Of a stretch of DNA of 64,000 nucleotides, positions 4,764-49,128 are shown in pieces. The stretch comes from an uncultured Gemmatimonadaceae bacterium (lineage in GTDB: Bacteria; Gemmatimonadota; Gemmatimonadetes; Gemmatimonadales; Gemmatimonadaceae). Both the position numbers and the translations under genes were made by a program. Positions within the stretch are counted from its first letter, which is position 1; each line of letters begins with the position of its first letter. The notes below the pieces were generated by a model that was given only the letters and a program-made list of their open reading frames with translations, had not been told where the DNA came from and ran no database searches. Where the stretch lies: assembly GCA_963781585.1 (NCBI GenBank), contig CAWAGQ010000013.1:192001-256000 (forward strand). Direction: 5' to 3'.

Positions 4764-4836
<73 letters not shown>

Positions 4837-14518: not shown

Positions 14519-15652
14519 TTAGGCAAGCGTGGCCGCCAGATGGCGCAGGAGGTCGGCGGTGATCAGTTGCGGACTCACGTTTCCGTCGGCCAGCAGTTTG
14601 GCATCCTCCACCAGGTCGATCGCCTGGCTGGCAGCGAGCGCCTGGCGCGCATTCCCGTGCTCGGCCCCCCCGCGCATCCGCTCCCGGAGGGCCAGGGTGA
14701 GGGCGTCGAGGAGATCGGAGAAGGCGCCGCGAGCGCCCCGGTGTCCCTGCAGGAACGCCAGGCGCCACAGTTCGGAGCGACGGCCCGCCACGGCGGCGTC
14801 GAGCAGGCGCTTTGCTTCGTCCACCGCGGGCTGGCGCACGCCGGATGACAGCAGCACTCCGGGGGCCCCTTCGGCGAGGTCGAGCCGGACCCTCTCCGGC
14901 TTCGGCACGCCGAGTTTGTCGAGTGCGGCGGATACGGCGGGATTGCGCAGAAACGCGCGCATCGCGGCTTCGGGAAGCCGTGGCACCCGCACGGTCACCA
15001 CGCGCGAGCGGATCGTGGGGAGCAGCGCGCCCACGGCGCTGCTGGTGGCGATGATCCAGGTGTCCGCCAGCGGTTCCTCGAGAAGCTTGAGCAGCGCGTT
15101 GGCGGCGAACTCCTGTCCCTCCACCGGCACCATCCGGTCCGCATCGCCGATGACGAACACCTTGCGCGCGGCCAGCGCCGGGGTGAGCGCGGCGCGCCGG
15201 AGAACGTGGCGCACGGTCGCCACGTAGATCCCCTCGGAGCCCGGGGGCGCCGCGTAGAGGCCATGCGCCTCGGCGCGCTCGAGCGCGGCGGTGGCGAGAT
15301 CGCTCTTGACGTCGTCGATGGCGAGGTCCGAGTCCTTCGGCCGCGGTCGCGGGAAGATCCACGTGAGATCGGGATGGACCAGCCCGATCACGTAGCGGCA
15401 GTGCTTGCAGGCTCCGCACGGCGGCTCCGGCTCGCGGCAGAGCAGGGCCTGCGCGACAAGCAGGGCCAGTCGCTGCTTTCCCACACCCTGCGGTCCGTGG
15501 AGGAGGAGACTCTGCGGCAACGAACCCGCGCGGACGGCGCGCAGCAGGCGTTCGCGCAGTTCCTCGTGCCCGAAGAGCGGAATGATGGTCCTGGCGGGCG
15601 GTGTCGCGTCAGGCAAGGGAGCGGGACTCCAGTCGGTGCAGGGCTCTGCCAT
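14519..15652 (-). CDS. holB: DNA polymerase III subunit delta'
   Basis: LLHGPQGVGK, C..PCGACKHC zinc motif, HPDL, AANALLKLLEEP, LLPTIRSR. Confidence 0.9.
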   Translation of the reverse strand: MAEPCTDWSPAPLPDATPPARTIIPLFGHEELRERLLRAVRAGSLPQSLLLHGPQGVGKQRLALLVAQALLCREPEPPCGACKHCRYVIGLVHPDLTWIFPRPRPKDSDLAIDDVKSDLATAALERAEAHGLYAAPPGSEGIYVATVRHVLRRAALTPALAARKVFVIGDADRMVPVEGQEFAANALLKLLEEPLADTWIIATSSAVGALLPTIRSRVVTVRVPRLPEAAMRAFLRNPAVSAALDKLGVPKPERVRLDLAEGAPGVLLSSGVRQPAVDEAKRLLDAAVAGRRSELWRLAFLQGHRGARGAFSDLLDALTLALRERMRGGAEHGNARQALAASQAIDLVEDAKLLADGNVSPQLITADLLRHLAATLA

Positions 15653-22738: not shown

Positions 22739-25003
22739 TCACTTCAGCCGTGCTGACCGGTCGTCCAGTGCGGCGGCCTCGCGGGCTCGCCCCACGCGGC
22801 GGAGAAGATCGGCGTAATCGTGGAGGGTCTCGCGAAGGTCGTCGTTGTTTGGCCCCGGGAACCGGTCGCGGATCGTGAGGGCGCGGTGGTACAGGGCCTC
22901 CGATTCACCGGAGTGGCCCGTGTCGCGCAGGACGCCGGCCAGGGCGTTGAGCGTGATGGCCACGCTTGGATTCCCGCTGGTGAGCACCTGTTCCTTGATC
23001 GCGAGCGCGTGGCGCAGGAGGGGCTCGGCCTCGTTGTAGCGCTTCAGCCTCCAGTAGGTCTCACCGAGGTTGTTGAGGATCTCGGCGAAGCGGGAGTGCG
23101 TCGGCCCCAGCGTCTTCTCGACGATCGGGCGGGCGCGTTCGTAGAGCCGCAGGGCCTCATCGTAGTGCCCGAGTTGCCAGGCCACCGCGCCGAGATTCTG
23201 CAACGTGCCGGCGACGTCGTAGTGATCCGGGCCCAACACGCGCTCCTGAATCTCCAGCGTGCGCTGAAACAGGGGTTGCGCCTGGTCGTAGCGCTGCGTG
23301 GCGTAGAAGACTGCTGCCAGGCCGCGCAGGTCGCGGGCGAAGCGCTGGTCATCGGGGCTGCGCAGCCGCTCGTCGAGGCCGACCACGCGCTGATAGAGCG
23401 ACTCGGCCTCGGCAATCCTCCCCTGTTTGTAGCGCAGCGCCGCCAGTCCGCCGAGAGTCGTGGCGAGGTCAACAGTCTCGGTGCCGCGCGGCGTTTCGCG
23501 AATGGCCAGCGCGCGCTGGTAGAACCCGTCCGCGTCGTCGTAGTTGCCCTTCCCGCGGGCGACGTCGCCTAACGCGGTGAGCGCTTCCGCGACCGCGGGA
23601 TCATTCGGTCCGAGGGCCTGCTCGCGGATGCTGCGGGCCTTCTCGAGCATCTCCCGCGCCGGGTCGAGGAGGCCGAGGGCTTCCTGCACGGTGCCGAGGG
23701 TGTACATGATGCGCGCCTGGAGCACCGGCTGCTGGGCAAGCTCGGTGGTGACGCGGCTGGCGCCCCAGTCGAGGATTTCGCGGGCCGTGAGCGTGTCGCC
23801 ACGCGACTGGCCGGGATCGGCGGTGCGAAACAGGTCGACCAGGAAGTTCGTGACCTGCCTGGCGGCTGCCGCCTCCTGAGCGGCGAGGCGTTCGGCGCGG
23901 GTGGCGCGGACAAAGCCGACCGTGGCCAGGATGGCGCTGGCAATCACGGCCACGCTGACCGCACCGGCGGTGATCACCGCCGCGCGGTGCCGTCGCACGA
24001 ACTTGACGAAGCGATACCGGGCGCTCCTCGGGCGGGCCACCACCGGTTCGTTGGCCAGGTGCCGCCTGAGATCATTGGCCAGCCCGTTGGCGGTCTCGTA
24101 GCGCCGGGTCCGCTCCGGCTCCATCGCCTTCATCACGATCCAATCGAGATCACCCTTGAGCTCGCGCCGCAGTCCGGCGGGCTCGGTTCGTCGCGAGGCC
24201 GCGACGTGGGTCTGCTCATTTCCCAGCGTCTGCAGCATCGCACTGGGCGTAGGCGGCGAGGTGTCACCGGCGGCCAGGCGGGCGAGGAAGGCGTGTACGC
24301 CCAGTTTCGCCGGATCGGTTGGGAGACGGCCCACCAGCAACTCGAAGAGCATCACGCCTAACGAGTAGATGTCGGCGCGGGTGTCGACGTCGACCGCCGC
24401 CGAATCGGCCTGCTCGGGACTCATGTAGGCGGCGGTCCCGATCATCTGGCCGAACTGGGTCACCAGCGTCCGGTCGGTCAGGGGACTGCCGAGCGCCTTG
24501 GCGATGCCGAAATCGATGATCTTGGGCTGCGGCGCGCCGTCCTGTTCGGCGATCAGGACGTTCGACGGCTTCAGGTCGCGATGGATGACGCCCTTCTGAT
24601 GGGCGTGCTGCACCGCCTGACAGACCGCGATGAACAGCTCCACCCGCTGCCGGACGGGAAGCCGGTGTGCGTCGCAGTACTCGGTGATCGGGAGCCCCTT
24701 CACCAGCTCCATGGCGAAGTACGGCTGCCCCGACTCGGTGGAGCCGGCGTGAAGCACCTTGGCGATGGCGGGGTGATTCATGACGGCGAGCGCCTGACGC
24801 TCCGTCTCGAACCGGGCGATCACGTCGCGCTGGTCGCGTCCGGCCCGCACCACCTTGAGCGCCACACGCCGCCGCACGGCCCCGGTCTCCTCGGCCTCGT
24901 ACACAACGCCCATCCCCCCCTCACCCAGCACCTGCAGGATGCGGTACGGGCCGATGCGTTCCGGAAGCGGGTGCAGGCCGCGGGAGACGGTGGTGTCGTT
25001 CAC
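22739..25003 (-). CDS. Serine/threonine protein kinase with TM segment and TPR repeats
   Basis: LGEGGMGVVY, VALK, HRDLKPSN, IIDFG, YMSPEQ; C-terminal TPR repeats. Confidence 0.95.
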   Translation of the reverse strand: MNDTTVSRGLHPLPERIGPYRILQVLGEGGMGVVYEAEETGAVRRRVALKVVRAGRDQRDVIARFETERQALAVMNHPAIAKVLHAGSTESGQPYFAMELVKGLPITEYCDAHRLPVRQRVELFIAVCQAVQHAHQKGVIHRDLKPSNVLIAEQDGAPQPKIIDFGIAKALGSPLTDRTLVTQFGQMIGTAAYMSPEQADSAAVDVDTRADIYSLGVMLFELLVGRLPTDPAKLGVHAFLARLAAGDTSPPTPSAMLQTLGNEQTHVAASRRTEPAGLRRELKGDLDWIVMKAMEPERTRRYETANGLANDLRRHLANEPVVARPRSARYRFVKFVRRHRAAVITAGAVSVAVIASAILATVGFVRATRAERLAAQEAAAARQVTNFLVDLFRTADPGQSRGDTLTAREILDWGASRVTTELAQQPVLQARIMYTLGTVQEALGLLDPAREMLEKARSIREQALGPNDPAVAEALTALGDVARGKGNYDDADGFYQRALAIRETPRGTETVDLATTLGGLAALRYKQGRIAEAESLYQRVVGLDERLRSPDDQRFARDLRGLAAVFYATQRYDQAQPLFQRTLEIQERVLGPDHYDVAGTLQNLGAVAWQLGHYDEALRLYERARPIVEKTLGPTHSRFAEILNNLGETYWRLKRYNEAEPLLRHALAIKEQVLTSGNPSVAITLNALAGVLRDTGHSGESEALYHRALTIRDRFPGPNNDDLRETLHDYADLLRRVGRAREAAALDDRSARLK

Positions 25004-25068
25004 GTCCCGGCCATCCTGGACTTACGGCGATACGCGCGGACCGCGCGTGTGCGGCTACTCTGTCACCG

Positions 25069-25497
25069 CTAGTCTACCACGATGTCGGGGTCGATGGTAA
25101 CCGTATCCGGAGTGTCACTTCCATTGGGCGCGCAGATTCCCGTGATGGTGTACTTGTGCGGTCCGGCGTCGGCCCCGTCCAGCACAGTGGCCGAGGCCGA
25201 CTGGCCTTTCACCGCCGTATAGGGACCGGCAGGATCGAACTTCCAGGTGATCGGGTCCTTTGCCGCAATGACGATTTGCGCAACGCTGTGCGCATCACTC
25301 TTGAAATTCCACTGCACCGTCTCCGCCTTCTTCCGATGCAACTTCCAGCGGTCGATCTTGAAGTCGACGTTGCCGCTGGAGCACGTGAGATGCACGTTGA
25401 CGTCTCCTCGCGCGAGGGCGGCTGGCCCGCCGGCGCATGAGACGACAACGACCACCACAAAGGCGACACCAGCGACTCGCACACCCACGCCGCGCAT
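25069..25497 (-). CDS. Small exported/lipoprotein hypothetical, beta-rich
   Basis: GGAG SD, hydrophobic N-terminus ending VVSC, two further Cys, C-terminal IDPDIVVD. Confidence 0.7.
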   Translation of the reverse strand: MRGVGVRVAGVAFVVVVVVSCAGGPAALARGDVNVHLTCSSGNVDFKIDRWKLHRKKAETVQWNFKSDAHSVAQIVIAAKDPITWKFDPAGPYTAVKGQSASATVLDGADAGPHKYTITGICAPNGSDTPDTVTIDPDIVVD

Positions 25498-25680
25498 AGG
25501 CCACTCCAGGAGGGCTGAAGTCCCTAGATTGGCCCGGCCTGCTGCGACCCGCAAGGTGGCGCACGCTGAATCCCGCGCCGGTGCCCGTCGCGTAGGGAAC
25601 CAGCAGCAACGGATCGGCCACTCCCCGGCTCCAACAGGGCGACCAGTCCGCGTTGCCCGTCGTGCTCACCCTCCGAGTAC

Positions 25681-27495
25681 ATGACCAACCCGCCACTCTC
25701 TCCGGAATTCCTCGCCCTCCAGCGCGCCGTCGCCGGGCGGTTCTCGCTGGTGCGCGAGCTCGGGCGGGGTGGCATGGGAATCGTCTACCTCGCGCGCGAC
25801 GTCGCCCTGGACCGGTTGGTCGCCATCAAACTGCTGCCGCCGGCCCTGGCCGGGCAGTCCGCGTTCCGCGACCGGTTTCTCCGCGAGGCGCGGATGGCCG
25901 CGTCGCTGGCGCATCCGCACATCGTGCCGATTCATCTCGTCGAATCGACCGGCGACATCGTGTACTTCGTGATGTCGTTCGTGGACGGGGAAACGCTGGG
26001 AGAGCGGGTCCGGCGCCGGGGACCGATGGCCTCGTCCGACGTGATGCGGATCGTCCAGGAAGTGGCCTGGGCGCTGGGGCACGCGCACGCGCGCGGGATC
26101 GTGCATCGGGACATCAAGCCTGACAACATCCTGCTCGACCGGGAGTCGGGGCGCGCGCTGGTGACCGACTTTGGCATCGCCGGCGCGGCGGCCGGCACCA
26201 CCCCGGCCGATGGCCTGCCGGCGGGCACGCCGCACTACCTCAGCCCCGAAGTGGCGCGCGGGGAGCATGGCGACGCCCGCGCCGACCTCTACGCGTTAGG
26301 CGTGACCGCCTGGTACGCGCTCACCGGCAGCCACCCGTTCGAGGCCCCCACGCTTCCGGCGCTGCTGGTGAAGCAGGCCTCGGAGCCGCCGCCGGGGCTG
26401 GGCCGGATCGCACCGCATGCGTCCCCGCGGTTCGCGCGCGCGATCGACCGCTGCCTGGCCACGATGCCCGAGCAGCGCTGGCCCGACGCCGAAGCGCTGG
26501 CCGGCGAGGTCGACGTGGTGCGCGCACGCGTGATGCGGTTGCCGGCGCCGGTTCGCGCGTTTGCGTCGGAGGCGATATCGGCAGGCGACCTGATAGCGAC
26601 CGGCATAGCCGGCGCTGCGACGGCATTGACGGTGCTGGCTGTTCTCCATCGCGGAGGGCCGTTCGACGACATGGTGGCGACCGCCACGCTGGTGCCGGTG
26701 GCCTCCGCTTTTCTCGGCGTTGCGCTTCTGCGAGTCGGAGGTGTGGGCATCGCTGCTCGAGACCTGATCGAGGCAGGGTACGACTTCGAAGCCGCGCGTG
26801 CCGGCCTGGTCCACACCTACGCCGAGCGAGGCGGTGAGGAGGCGGAGAAGCTTTCCACGTCACACAGACGTCGAGCGCTGGTCTACGGGGCCACCGCCCT
26901 CATCAAGGAAGCGATCGCAATCTCGTTGGCTCTGTGGGCAAGGTCGACCTGGATCTATCTCCCGGCCGAGGTGTTCGCGGTGCTCATTCCGCCCTTCGCC
27001 GCGCGAACCATCTGGCGCACCCTCGGGCTCGGGCCGGGGCTGTGGCTGCGCCTGCTCGGAGGCCGACTGGGCCGGTTCATGTTCTCGGTTGCGCGCCGGC
27101 TCGCGCGCCGCAGCACTGCGCCCGCGGCCGACGCCCAATCGACGATCGCGGCGCTCGGCAGCGACGCCGAGGGGACATTCCTTCGCCTGCCGCTCGGCGT
27201 GCGCGATGACCTGCGCAACGTCCCGCGTCTGCTGAGTGCGCTGGGACGTAAGGCCGAGGTGCTGAGAACGAAGGCCGACGACCCCGTGGCGGCGGAACGG
27301 CTGGCCACCGTGGTCGCGGCCATCGAGGCCATGCGGCTGGACCTGCTGAGCCTCGAGGCAGGGCTTGTCACCATCCCGGATGTGACACGCCATCTCCAGG
27401 ATGCCGAACGCATCGCGCGGGCCGTCGACAATCTGCTGGAAACGCCCCCGCATGTCGCGACGGAGAAACTGGTCGGAGATCCAACCCCCACCTGA
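25681..27495 (+). CDS. Serine/threonine protein kinase with membrane C-terminal region
   Basis: LGRGGMGIVY, VAIK, HRDIKPDN, TDFG, GTPHYLSPE; several hydrophobic helices after the kinase domain. Confidence 0.92.
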   Translation: MTNPPLSPEFLALQRAVAGRFSLVRELGRGGMGIVYLARDVALDRLVAIKLLPPALAGQSAFRDRFLREARMAASLAHPHIVPIHLVESTGDIVYFVMSFVDGETLGERVRRRGPMASSDVMRIVQEVAWALGHAHARGIVHRDIKPDNILLDRESGRALVTDFGIAGAAAGTTPADGLPAGTPHYLSPEVARGEHGDARADLYALGVTAWYALTGSHPFEAPTLPALLVKQASEPPPGLGRIAPHASPRFARAIDRCLATMPEQRWPDAEALAGEVDVVRARVMRLPAPVRAFASEAISAGDLIATGIAGAATALTVLAVLHRGGPFDDMVATATLVPVASAFLGVALLRVGGVGIAARDLIEAGYDFEAARAGLVHTYAERGGEEAEKLSTSHRRRALVYGATALIKEAIAISLALWARSTWIYLPAEVFAVLIPPFAARTIWRTLGLGPGLWLRLLGGRLGRFMFSVARRLARRSTAPAADAQSTIAALGSDAEGTFLRLPLGVRDDLRNVPRLLSALGRKAEVLRTKADDPVAAERLATVVAAIEAMRLDLLSLEAGLVTIPDVTRHLQDAERIARAVDNLLETPPHVATEKLVGDPTPT

Positions 27496-44721: not shown

Positions 44722-46173
44722 TCAGCGCCAGCGCCGCCACGATCCCCACGGAGCGCGCGCGGAGGCCAGCGCGGTAGCGCGCTGAGCCTCGACTGCTGGT
44801 CGGGCCGCGCCGAGCCACGGAGCGCGGCTCCGCACGCTCGCGACGTTCAGTGCGCCGAGCCCGCCGCGGCCGAGCCGCGACGCGCCGAAGCCGGAAGTCA
44901 GGAACCCCGGGGGAGTTCGCGCCAGCAACACACCGGCGTTAGGTGCGATGTCCGTCGGCCGGTTGTTGGAGCCGAAGACGGCCGAGAAGCTGAGATTCCC
45001 GTCATCGTTCCCTATCTTGAAGAACGGGATCCTGACGGTGACGGAGTCATCATCGTAGACGGTAGCCACCAGACCGAGGAAGCCGTCGAGTCCCCACATC
45101 TCGGCGGTCGCGTCGTCCTGGCTGAAGAAGCTGACCTCGTAGTCCACGCCCTGTGTGGCGGACCCCCCGAGGACGTTGACGCCGGGTGGGACGCCGGTGG
45201 CCTCGCTCTCGTCCACGTCGAAGTCCATGAACCCGTACAGCGAATTGGGCTGCGCCAGCGCCGACGCGACCACGGGCGCCGAGAAGTGCAGCGTGAGCAG
45301 CAGCCACCCCGGTACGTAACGCCCGGTGACCGCCAGGAGGTCGAGCGCGGGGGCGGATCCCGTCTGGGTGTTGGGCAGCGTGTCGTTGGCCGGATCGGTG
45401 ACCGCGAATCCCTCCTCTCCGGCTCCGATCGCGGTGCAGACAACATCGACCGACATGGGCAGCGCCTGACCGGCGGCAATCGACACTGGCCGCGTGGCGG
45501 AGCCGGTCAATGTGCAGTTCGGCTCCACGTCGAAGATTTCGAGCGTGTGATCGCCGGGCGGAATGTGGATGAGCCGGCGCGACGAGTTGCGGTCCAGCTC
45601 GAACACCAGACCCTGGTCGTAGGAGATCAGGTAGCCGTCGGGGTCGATGTCCTCACCGGTGGTGGTTGACGTAAACCTGACTTCGCCCGTCACCGGCGTG
45701 CACTGCACCGCGAAGTTCACATCGATCGTATCGTTGGCCACGATCGATACCTGACGAGAGTCCTGGCCTGATGAGCACGCCGAGTTGAGTCCCTGCAGGG
45801 CGACCGTATGGGTGCCGACCCGAAGGTTGTTGACGTGGAAGGTCGCGCCGTCGGCGCTCGACACGTCGAGCGGAGCGATGGTATCGATGGCGAGCTTGAA
45901 GGTGAACGTCGCAAGGTCGCCCGCCGTTTGCGTGGCGACGGAAATCGTCATCGATCCGTGCGCGGCCGGTCCGGTGCTGTCCGAGCACCCGGCCAGGATC
46001 CATGCGGCGGCGAGAAGCGGCCCGGCTGTCGCGGCGAGGTGCATGCTTCTGCAGCGTGCAACCGGTTGGCGAGCGGATGCGCCAATCCCGGCGTAGAGTG
46101 ACCGGCGGGCCGCACCGGAAGACGAGTGCGTACCATGCGGTAGCGCGGATTGCGACGATCGCGGACCGGACAT
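44722..46173 (-). CDS. Hypothetical lipoprotein with Cys-flanked Ig-like repeats
   Basis: Lipobox LAGC; two GxHTxxL...C...C modules, TTTGEDIDPDGY; start at ATG 46173 or 46044. Confidence 0.7.
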   Translation of the reverse strand: MSGPRSSQSALPHGTHSSSGAARRSLYAGIGASARQPVARCRSMHLAATAGPLLAAAWILAGCSDSTGPAAHGSMTISVATQTAGDLATFTFKLAIDTIAPLDVSSADGATFHVNNLRVGTHTVALQGLNSACSSGQDSRQVSIVANDTIDVNFAVQCTPVTGEVRFTSTTTGEDIDPDGYLISYDQGLVFELDRNSSRRLIHIPPGDHTLEIFDVEPNCTLTGSATRPVSIAAGQALPMSVDVVCTAIGAGEEGFAVTDPANDTLPNTQTGSAPALDLLAVTGRYVPGWLLLTLHFSAPVVASALAQPNSLYGFMDFDVDESEATGVPPGVNVLGGSATQGVDYEVSFFSQDDATAEMWGLDGFLGLVATVYDDDSVTVRIPFFKIGNDDGNLSFSAVFGSNNRPTDIAPNAGVLLARTPPGFLTSGFGASRLGRGGLGALNVASVRSRAPWLGAARPAVEAQRATALASARAPWGSWRRWR

Positions 46174-46473
46174 CATTCCCCCCGAGGCGTTCGGCCTCGA
46201 ACTAGCCCCACGTCGAAGGGTCGATGCTAGTTCGCCGACAGTCTCCGGAAGATACGACGAAGATCGTGCGAGCGCGCCACGGAACTTGCGCCACCGTGTG
46301 CGCGCCACCGTGCGCGTCGTCTGGTCACGGAGGTAACGAAATCTCCTCGTGGTCCACGAAGGTACCGCGCCTTGAGGTCGAGTCAGATAGCACTCCTCGA
46401 GAGCGACCAATTCAAATGCGCCGTCCTACGCAAGCGGTGAAGCATCGAGAACCCCCAGGTGCGTGGCCGTCCA

Positions 46474-46520
46474 CGGACGAAATTCGGCAAATCCGGACGA
46501 AATTCGGCAAATCCGGACGA
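46474..46520. repeat. Perfect 20-bp tandem repeat (2.35 copies) upstream of the peptide gene
   Basis: cggacgaaattcggcaaatc x2 + cggacga. Confidence 0.9.
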
Positions 46521-46674
46521 TCTTCGGTGTGCTCTGGCTACTCCGAGCGTACCCGTTGTGACGTACCGCCCGAACGGCTTCCAGATGTCCTGGCCCGACT
46601 GCGCCGCACGCCGGCGACAGATCGCCTCGGAACGCGCTTGGTCGGGTGTGACCTTCAAGATCTCGGAGGAAAAG

Positions 46675-46918
46675 ATGTCGAACCGTGGCCTTGCAACTCG
46701 CGCGGCGCTGGTCGTGGGCCTTGCCACAACCGCTCTGCTAGCCACTCCCTCCTGCTCCAGCCTTTGGGTTCTGCTACGAGGGATGCTATCCCCTGATCAT
46801 GTGCCCTGAGCCGTCGGAGCTTCGGTCGTTCTGCATCGACCAAGGTTGCTCAGGTAACGCCAACTGCGCGACGAACGCCGCCAACTGCTCGGGTGATACA
46901 AACATTATTTGCTTCTAA
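46675..46918 (+). CDS. Secreted 8-Cys peptide precursor (~80 aa), interrupted by a +1 frameshift near 46750
   Basis: GGAGGA SD then MSNRGLATRAALVVGLATTALLATP; in the +1 frame PAPAFG-FCYEGCYPLIMCPEPSELRSFCIDQGCSGNANCATNAANCSGDTNIICF, stop TAA 46916-46918. Confidence 0.7.
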
Positions 46919-47018
46919 TCTCAGGTGCCATGCCTGACAAGGTGCGCGGCTCGCCCCGACGCAATTGTCGAGGAGGGAGCCGCGGCCATGTCGCCAATCG
47001 CCACTTCTCTCGCGTCGC

Positions 47019-47702
47019 ATGACGGACCGCCACGACAAGGTCTTGTCCGTAACTCTTACGCTCACGGCGGTGGTGCTGGCCGGCACAGCTGTGTACCGAA
47101 CCTTCAGCCGACCTCAACCACCCGCCGGCTTCGAGCCAGCGGCTCCCGAATACGTAAAGAACTGGCGAGAGCTGCTTCCGGCAGGGATCCGGATGGGGAA
47201 CAAGAACGCCTCGATTAGTATCATCGAATTCTCAGACTTCGAGTGTCCCTTCTGCAAACGCTTCGCGTCAACTCTGAAGGACCTGCGGGCGGCGCGTCAT
47301 GATGATGTGGCAATCATCTTCATTCACTATCCGCTGGATTCGCATCGCTTCGCCCGACTGGCCGCCCGGGTGGCAGAGTGCGCGGCAGGCCAGGGCCTCT
47401 TTCCGCGCATGCAGGACCTGCTGTTCGAGAAGCAGGATTCTCTCGGTCTGATTCCGTGGACACGGCTTGCGGTCGACGTGGGAATCCACGATACGTCCAG
47501 CTTCTCACGATGCGCCGCAGACAGCCGTGTTCTTCCGCGCGTGGAAGTCGGTCTCGAGGCAGGGCGCCGGATCAATGTGCGTGGAACGCCAACTGTGCTG
47601 GTAAACGGCTGGCGCCTCTACGGGACCCCGACCCTTGAGCAGCTGCTGAAAGTGATTCAGGACATCGAAGCCGGACGATCGCCCGCAAGAGGGATGCCGT
47701 GA
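47019..47702 (+). CDS. Membrane-anchored DsbA-like thiol:disulfide oxidoreductase
   Basis: N-terminal TM, IEFSDFECPFC (CxxC), HYPL, cis-Pro loop GTPT. Confidence 0.9.
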   Translation: MTDRHDKVLSVTLTLTAVVLAGTAVYRTFSRPQPPAGFEPAAPEYVKNWRELLPAGIRMGNKNASISIIEFSDFECPFCKRFASTLKDLRAARHDDVAIIFIHYPLDSHRFARLAARVAECAAGQGLFPRMQDLLFEKQDSLGLIPWTRLAVDVGIHDTSSFSRCAADSRVLPRVEVGLEAGRRINVRGTPTVLVNGWRLYGTPTLEQLLKVIQDIEAGRSPARGMP

Positions 47703-47706
47703 TCGC

Positions 47707-49128
47707 ATGCGCGGGACGCCGCTACGACCCGTGCGAGCACGATCGGATGGGCCGATGACTGCGAGCACGATGTCGGTCCTTCTAATTACCGGCGTCATCC
47801 GCCGAACAGTGCCGAGTCGATTCCCAGCGGCCTTCGCCGTCCCGGCCAGTCTTCGCAAATCAACCCTCTGTATCCTCGCTCTCATCATCGGGCACCCTCT
47901 GGAGGGCCAGACGCTTCCCACGATGCTAGCCGAATCGAGCTGCCGCTCCGCATGTGGAATGGAAGTGCAGAAGGCCATTCGGCTGGCGGCCGACAGCGAG
48001 GTGCTGGTCACGGGCACGCCGTACTTCGTCGGTTCAGATGCTCAAGGCCGCATCTTCCTGATCCGGAGCAGTCGGTTGGGCCTCCCGGAGGCTCCGCCGC
48101 TTGTGTTCGACCACAACGGGCGCTTTCTGACGGAACTTGGTCGTCGAGGACGGGGCCCGGGAGAAACCCTGTACCCGTCGTGGATTGACTTCGGACCAGA
48201 CGACAGCATTCGCGTTTTCGAGGCCAGTCGAATTCACGTGTTCGGGCCGGATCTCCATCCGGCGAGAACGCAACTTGATCTGAGGGAGGTGCGCTCACTG
48301 AGGTACGTCGTCCGGTTCGGTGACGGCATGATCGTTGGGCTTGGAAACGAGTTCCTCAAACCGGGCGAGCCACGTCCGGTACATGAGCTGCGACCGGGCG
48401 TGAAATCGCTCACCATGATGCCCGAACCGGCACTGAAGGTCCCAAACGGTCCGGTGCGTGTTCTGGCGGCGTCGCGAAACCCGCACCGCTTCTGGATAGG
48501 ACAGTTCGATCTCAGCGAGGGAGTTGGCTACGACCTCCTGCTCACCGACCCAGGTGGACATGTCTTCGCCGCCTTCCGGCGTCGTCCCGTCTGGTGGAAG
48601 TCCCCTCGGATCATCGGATTGAAGACGTTTGTTCCGACTTCCCGAGTGCAGGCCGTTCGGGAGATCCGCAACGGTCTTCTGCTGGTGCTCGTCGCCCAAC
48701 CGCGATCCGACTGGAAGCCCGGCACGGCCGATCCCAGGAACCTCATGGCGTCATCGGATGCGTACGAGGCGAGGATGGAGCTCGTTGACGTTGTGCAGCG
48801 GGGCGTGTCCGGCTGGGCTCACGTCCCCGGCTACCCTGTCGGGATCGTGGATGACACCACGATCGCGACCTATGTCGAAGATGCCGACGGCTCGCCACAC
48901 GTCGATTTATGGCGCGCTTACCCGACCGATGGACGCAGCCAAGGCACCTCGCCGCCGGTGCGAGGAACGCCCCCATTGCGGCAATTCGACGAGTCGAAGC
49001 CCGCGGACGCGCCCCCCACCTCGGCGGGGATCGCAAGGCGTACCCCAGTGAGTTGCTACTTCGCGTCCAGCTTCCTCCCCGCGTTCAGGTTGTCCCAGTT
49101 GAGGATCGTGTTGAACACGAGGAAGTAG
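47707..49128 (+). CDS. Secreted 6-bladed beta-propeller protein (start uncertain; C-terminus overruns the convergent gene)
   Basis: VFDHNGRFLTELGRRGRGPGE, GPDDSIRVF, YVEDADGSPHVDLWR; N-terminal CRSAC. Confidence 0.7.
   Translation: MRGTPLRPVRARSDGPMTASTMSVLLITGVIRRTVPSRFPAAFAVPASLRKSTLCILALIIGHPLEGQTLPTMLAESSCRSACGMEVQKAIRLAADSEVLVTGTPYFVGSDAQGRIFLIRSSRLGLPEAPPLVFDHNGRFLTELGRRGRGPGETLYPSWIDFGPDDSIRVFEASRIHVFGPDLHPARTQLDLREVRSLRYVVRFGDGMIVGLGNEFLKPGEPRPVHELRPGVKSLTMMPEPALKVPNGPVRVLAASRNPHRFWIGQFDLSEGVGYDLLLTDPGGHVFAAFRRRPVWWKSPRIIGLKTFVPTSRVQAVREIRNGLLLVLVAQPRSDWKPGTADPRNLMASSDAYEARMELVDVVQRGVSGWAHVPGYPVGIVDDTTIATYVEDADGSPHVDLWRAYPTDGRSQGTSPPVRGTPPLRQFDESKPADAPPTSAGIARRTPVSCYFASSFLPAFRLSQLRIVLNTRK

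Follow-up and report, generated by a model that had tools for sequence, protein, structure and literature searches.

A possible orphan gene for an exported eight-cysteine peptide, interrupted by a one-base frame change, upstream of a DsbA-type oxidoreductase gene in a Gemmatimonadota contig

Several bacterial loci are known in which a small exported peptide or protein is served by a thiol-disulfide oxidoreductase encoded alongside it. Sublancin 168, with BdbB, and enterocin F4-9 are described in extracts of PMC6606811 as products of bacteriocin loci in which a thiol-disulfide oxidoreductase gene is part of the locus itself. In uropathogenic Escherichia coli, according to extracts of PMC8405906, DsbL is an accessory DsbA with a CPFC motif that is dedicated to a co-expressed arylsulfate sulfotransferase, and the E. 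coli heat-stable enterotoxin STb is listed there as a DsbA substrate.

The locus described here lies in a window of 64 kb, by which is meant the whole stretch of DNA that was analysed, and it shares features with each of these systems. As at the bacteriocin loci, to the extent that the extracts describe them, a small, putatively exported Cys-containing peptide adjoins a thioredoxin-fold oxidase that could be thought to fold it. However, those bacteriocins depend on double-glycine leaders or dedicated transporters for export, whereas the peptide considered here has a Sec-type signal and eight Cys residues and shows no sequence similarity to them. The transporter, glycosyltransferase and immunity genes in the extracts' account of bacteriocin loci were likewise not seen among the ORFs scanned here. 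The likeness to DsbL, as far as the source extracts go, is that the enzyme encoded here also has a CPFC motif and that a β-propeller gene lies 3′ of it. On the other hand, this propeller is poor in Cys (four or one, depending on the start codon) and is a poor candidate substrate, and the ORFs scanned in the vicinity include no DsbB or DsbI partner. With the E. coli heat-stable enterotoxins, on the same partial account, the peptide would share a small precursor with a signal peptide and oxidation by DsbA in the periplasm, but there is no likeness in sequence or Cys pattern, the enterotoxins have fewer disulfides and nothing toxin-like was seen here. By analogy, the peptide locus may work as the bacteriocin-oxidase and DsbL loci do, while standing outside their families. 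Exported disulfide-rich peptides are a known kind; this particular sequence is an orphan.

The reading begins at a Shine-Dalgarno sequence, GGAGGA (46665–46670, + strand), spaced 4 nt from an ATG at 46675–46677, and both elements lie exactly where an earlier note on this DNA, made by eye from the letters and the ORF list, had placed them. From this ATG, frame 1 encodes 44 aa (MSNRGLATRAALVVGLATTALLATPSCSSLWVLLRGMLSPDHVP), in the order basic N-terminus, 14-residue hydrophobic stretch, SCSSLWVLLRGMLSPDHVP and a TGA at 46807–46809 (+ strand). The first part of the frame (46675–46749, + strand) comprises the start codon with the n-region MSNRGLATR and the h-region AALVVGLATTALLA.

How unusual such a start is can be judged from a survey of the window, in which 3451 candidate starts with 25 open codons were considered. 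A Shine-Dalgarno match of at least 5 nt at a distance of 3–10 nt was found at 59 of the 3451, and only six, ATG 46675 among them, also had a signal-peptide-like N-terminus as defined by a simple rule of our own. The other five head ORFs of 170, 228, 388, 890 and 1087 aa, four of which have codon scores of 0.30–0.51 and three of which carry Pfam domains (MsrA, GH3 and a sortilin-like protein); ATG 46675 is the sole member of the six whose ORF ends after 44 codons. The start is convincing and is the strongest point in favour of a gene.

The encoded N-terminus contains two Arg in residues 4–9, followed by an uncharged stretch in which the best 12 consecutive residues average 2.27 on the Kyte-Doolittle scale. 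This is the pattern of a Sec signal peptide, that is, a positive n-region and an uncharged h-region of ∼10–15 residues, and supports the assignment of n-, h- and c-regions of a putative Sec signal peptide. A lipoprotein (signal peptidase II) reading was rejected: the T-P-S-C of frame 1 places Pro at −2 and departs from the lipobox [LVI][ASTVI][GAS]C.

The Cys-rich sequence lies in the +1 frame. Here a TAG at 46739–46741 is followed by 58 open codons, from 46742 to a TAA at 46916–46918 (+ strand), which read PLPPAPAFG and then a 49-residue core (46769–46915, + strand), the putative mature peptide. Cys occupies core positions 2, 6, 12, 22, 27, 33, 40 and 48, so that the spacing is 3-5-9-4-5-6-7; translation of this frame confirmed the eight-Cys core, its spacing and the TAA, all reported in the earlier note. 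ATG 46799 is the first ATG, GTG or TTG codon of the open +1 frame.

Both frames are open in the overlap zone (46742–46806, + strand), and the frame change falls inside it. The base originally proposed to be skipped is T 46750; when CCCT (46747–46750) is taken as one step, the proposed 80-aa joined protein is indeed reproduced. When codon log-odds were summed over both frames, the best totals were obtained for a frame change at 46744–46774, and a change at the frame-1 stop was 13–15 bits worse. An early join is favoured on these scores, and its position may be anywhere in 46744–46774; some joins inside this interval would bring in a ninth Cys. The earlier proposal was that the join creates an A-F-G signal peptidase I site directly before the core. 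Within PAPAFG (46751–46768, + strand), the putative c-region, A is at −3 and G at −1, ahead of F, and these small residues occur in the joined reading only, with the site judged by reading rather than by a predictor; the exact join, and with it this putative site, is not fixed by the codon scores within 46744–46774.

As deposited, the peptide gene is broken by a one-base (+1) frame change, and the need for such a change counts against reading a gene here. Phase variation is unlikely to be the cause, because base runs in the overlap zone are no more than three long. Among the 39 long ORF translations of the window that were scanned, 30 had Pfam hits, with matches mostly near full profile length within one ORF, and no split genes were apparent. 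This lack of split domain matches suggests an assembly without visible proneness to indels, in which a single error is still possible. The break stems from either an assembly error of one base or a recent mutation that inactivated the gene, and the sequence alone does not separate the two.

The reading preferred here is that of an orphan gene whose product would be a mini-protein with four disulfides, exported through Sec, and whose frame was disrupted by a recent mutation or by an indel in the assembly; we give it an even chance of being correct. The broader statement, that a real gene is present at this site, either intact in nature or recently broken, is likewise about evenly poised. The locus would be a lineage-specific orphan small gene, its deposited copy interrupted by a one-base (+1) change within 46744–46774. 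Reading through the break would give an 80-aa precursor with a signal peptide of ∼31 aa, made up of MSNRGLATR, AALVVGLATTALLA and the c-region TPPAPAFG. Putative signal peptidase I cleavage after A-F-G would release a 49-aa mature peptide, in which a DsbA-type oxidase could join the eight Cys into four extracytoplasmic disulfides; the obvious candidate would be the membrane-anchored CPFC DsbA encoded 100 bp downstream. The product might be a stable extracytoplasmic mini-protein, for example an antimicrobial peptide or an inhibitor.

The foremost alternative is that there is no gene, that the segment is the 5′ untranslated and promoter region of the DsbA operon, and that the Cys-rich open frame and the signal-peptide-like start both arose by coincidence in GC-rich DNA. 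We consider this unlikely. Cys richness alone is not beyond chance in the window: in a six-frame translation of the 64 kb, 80 of 69,109 stop-free 49-aa windows, at five loci, contain at least eight Cys. Nor is the even Cys count informative, although it had been offered as evidence, as Cys parity is a coin toss. Chance is also favoured by a negative codon score when all codons are counted, by the silence of the gene callers at this locus, by searches none of which yielded a homologue, and by high third-position GC in frame 1 that begins near 46520, already upstream of the ATG.

Against chance, the five other hits to the combined Shine-Dalgarno and signal-peptide rule are all at the N-termini of long ORFs. 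Moreover, the intergenic Cys-rich frame has a single Arg in 58 residues and a combined R, A, G, P and S fraction of 0.40, whereas six other loci with at least seven Cys per 49 aa have 9–27 Arg and fractions of 0.60–0.73, and all six sit inside the coordinates of Pfam-bearing long ORFs. This contrast in composition, together with the Shine-Dalgarno sequence and the signal-peptide-like start (six of 3451), makes chance unlikely.

Codon usage was assessed with a log-odds score for which 17 long genes from the window served as the training set. When Cys codons are counted, the core scores −0.09 bits per codon, the whole +1 frame −0.23 and the signal-peptide part −0.17; the value for the core is below the 5th percentile for 49-codon pieces of typical genes (+0.13). 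The deficit of the core comes wholly from its eight TGC codons, each of which contributes −2.45 bits. The remaining 41 codons score +0.37 bits per codon, compared with +0.17 for the DsbA gene and +0.12 for the propeller gene. The six chance Cys-rich loci score −0.17 to −1.33 bits per codon, and both the non-Cys score and the single Arg set the present locus apart from all of them. In addition, 21 of 25 two-fold-degenerate codons of the core end in G or C (P = 0.01–0.04 at a GC background of 60–66%), and at about 46740–46760 the peak of third-position GC leaves frame 1 for the +1 frame. If Cys codons are disregarded, the Cys-rich frame resembles coding sequence in both composition and codon choice. 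None of the antisense ORFs over the locus scored positive (−0.07 to −0.74), Rfam gave no match at 46000–47300, and a search of the + strand for a sigma-70-like promoter was negative.

Searches for relatives of the peptide were uniformly negative. When 1.84 billion representatives were searched by phmmer with the 58-residue frame, three hits came back, all of them giant tandem-repeat proteins of 1628–5084 aa. These are matched only by query residues 5–26, in 12–54 stretches, and were rejected as spurious. Neither the Cys-rich frame nor the 44-aa product of frame 1 found a homologue in word searches, and no relative was obtained from the PDB by sequence at E up to 10, from NCBIfam, from the Atlas, or by tblastn on plasmids and phages or on 80 fetched DsbA loci. 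There are no further copies of the peptide gene inside the window, and a literature search gave nothing on such a peptide, on DUF5128 or on NVEALA. The homologue check that had been proposed thus came out negative, with no homologue keeping the Cys spacing in any search.

This silence is weaker than it looks, because the lineage is poorly sampled. The DsbA-like protein, for which the 15-billion-protein collection contains an exact sequence match, forms a singleton cluster there at 90% identity, and a word search with the propeller returned only itself. A genome scan with the DsbA yielded at least 80 loci, which among the matches listed were at most 42% identical and came from other phyla. The same collection lacks all five ORF forms looked up for the peptide locus (the join and the products of 44, 39, 116 and 74 aa) but contains the DsbA from this 566,596-bp contig; this indicates that the peptide gene was not called and agrees with the original description of it as missed.

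The only profile lead was WAP (PF00095), at 14.6 bits and E 0.04, with core residues 11–48 aligned on positions 4–38 of 41. There is a likeness to the WAP four-disulfide core in the presence of eight Cys in ∼45 residues. WAP domains have a central adjacent Cys pair, and membership was rejected here: the score is below the gathering cut-off of 20.8, the peptide has no adjacent Cys and only six of its eight Cys are in the matched part. A Cys-rich RiPP of the radical-SAM type (SCIFF/ranthipeptide), whose precursor gene would adjoin one for a radical SAM maturase, was also set aside, with no Radical_SAM hit in the sets of 8 and 39 ORF translations and no NCBIfam hit.

Structure prediction had been suggested as a further check, and its outcome was neither favourable nor unfavourable. 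AlphaFold2 gave the core alone a pLDDT of 68.3 and a pTM of 0.45, compared with 67.4 and 0.38 for an off-frame eight-Cys control stretch (14848–14994, − strand) inside the DNA polymerase III delta-prime gene, and Foldseek returned no match to the core model in the PDB with E ≤ 0.001. Since the pLDDT of the core equals that of the control, the fold is no evidence either way, and equal confidence for an off-frame stretch calls for care with the folding of Cys-rich peptides from single sequences.

Downstream of the Cys-rich frame lies the gene for a DsbA-like thiol:disulfide oxidoreductase (47019–47702, + strand) with an N-terminal membrane anchor. Its profile scores (Thioredoxin_4, 81.4 bits with a cut-off of 23.2; DSBA, 51.6 bits with a cut-off of 25.6) and its CXXC motif, CPFC at residues 76–79, place it in the DsbA family. 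It is followed by an ORF for a six-bladed β-propeller of the DUF5128/NHL kind (47707–49128, + strand). Here the Pfam DUF5128 score of 19.2 bits is under the cut-off of 22.9, but NHL chains are matched in the PDB at E 3e-6 and the closest clusters in the Atlas, which are DUF5128, occur most often in Gemmatimonadota. The start of the propeller is uncertain: the version in the collection begins at 47959, and the longer reading has a hydrophobic segment at about residues 53–61. The propeller contains four Cys in the 473-aa reading and one in the 389-aa reading, and this paucity would leave the peptide as the sole Cys-rich export candidate beside the oxidase. DUF5128 propellers may be linked with small peptides in Bacteroides, a link that plays no part in the present argument.

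The position of the Cys-rich frame beside a DsbA gene had been put forward as unlikely by chance, and this argument proved weak. For a set of 80 relatives of this DsbA, one small signal-peptide-bearing Cys-rich ORF was found within 1.5 kb (0.0046 per kb) versus four elsewhere (0.0055 per kb), with no enrichment near these relatives. The adjacency is a single observation and weak evidence. Overall, the interpretation given in the earlier note is partly supported.

Third-position GC is 0.66, 0.69 and 0.73 for the peptide, DsbA and propeller genes on the + strand, versus 0.80–0.88 for the flanking minus-strand genes, and the trio may be a cassette of separate origin. The three + strand genes span 46675–49128, and their codon scores are also lower than those of the minus-strand genes on either side. 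If the break is an assembly error and the peptide is made, it would be the first of an unrecognised Gemmatimonadota family of four-disulfide mini-proteins exported by Sec, encoded in a small cassette with its own CPFC oxidase and a DUF5128 propeller; we regard this extended proposal as distinctly unlikely. Were it true, conceivable products include an antimicrobial peptide stabilised by disulfides and an inhibitor with a new fold.

More generally, if the gene is real, it would illustrate that gene callers miss small secreted disulfide-rich peptides over one wrong base, and a little-studied phylum would have contributed an orphan scaffold with four disulfides, from which stable bioactive mini-proteins might be derived. 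Should it prove to be a pseudogene or a product of chance, it only advises caution in the reading of Cys-rich frames in GC-rich DNA. Either way, the locus has no bearing on any long-standing open question.

An improbable alternative is that the real product is the 44-aa frame-1 peptide (46675–46809), a tiny secreted or membrane peptide, and that the Cys-rich frame is untranslated. This would make use of an intact ORF with a strong start and would render a frame change unnecessary. However, the tail of frame 1 past the signal peptide scores −0.79 bits per codon, typical of off-frame sequence, the word search with this product gave no homologue, and the T-P-S-C before its one Cys misfits the lipobox. 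It would also leave unexplained the 36 stop-free codons with five Cys and gene-like codon choice that continue past the frame-1 stop.

Very improbable, in our estimation, is a leaderless 39-aa peptide with six Cys that starts at ATG 46799 and is cytoplasmic or exported by other means. Although no other ORF in the Cys-rich frame has a canonical start, ATG 46799 has no Shine-Dalgarno sequence, and the strong start 124 nt upstream would have to be disregarded; moreover, the gene-like stretch begins ahead of this ATG, with two more Cys, and the 39-aa form is absent from the 15-billion-protein collection.

Programmed +1 frameshifting, at CCC-U (46747–46750) or at CCC-UGA (46804–46809), is barely credible: both sites have a proline codon followed by U, a context that favours +1 slippage, a stop codon would occupy the A site at the second, like that of prfB, and four-base reading at CCC-U gives a clean signal-peptide junction, but efficient +1 frameshifting is very rare in bacteria, neither site has a Shine-Dalgarno-like stimulator just upstream, no slow codon follows CCC-U, and the join at the stop scores 13–15 bits below the early join. 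A prfB-type site combines a slippery codon ahead of a stop or slow codon with such a stimulator a few bases upstream, and CCC-UGA lacks the stimulator.

Two further features flank the putative peptide gene. Upstream, a perfect 20-bp direct repeat of 2.3 copies (46474–46520; Tandem Repeats Finder, 100% matches) lies ∼155 bp 5′ of ATG 46675. Each unit contains a 9-bp palindrome, and the unit is unique to 46474–46520 in the window, with none expected by chance; the repeat is possibly a regulator binding site. Downstream, between the peptide TAA and the DsbA start, a stable stem-loop is predicted (46924–47002, + strand; core 46941–46987), with an MFE of −47.3 kcal/mol and a z of −2.10, although 7 of 200 shuffles fold equally well. 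It has no U-tract and buries the GAGGAGGGAG stretch, and it is possibly a terminator or a stabiliser.

On the other side of the repeat, the long minus-strand ORF at 44722–46410 likely starts at ATG 46044, where a lipoprotein-type signal ending L-A-G-C is encoded; the 122 codons upstream of this ATG score as non-coding. The divergent gap from this start to the peptide ATG is 630 bp and contains the direct repeat; without the peptide gene, an empty gap of 974 bp would separate 46044 from the DsbA start at 47019.

Elsewhere in the window, two Ser/Thr protein kinase genes lie on opposite strands at 22742–27492, one of them fused to many TPR repeats, and several peptidase genes (M28, M20 and M14) are present. 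One tRNA gene, at 4764–4836, is the window's only Rfam match at gathering score.
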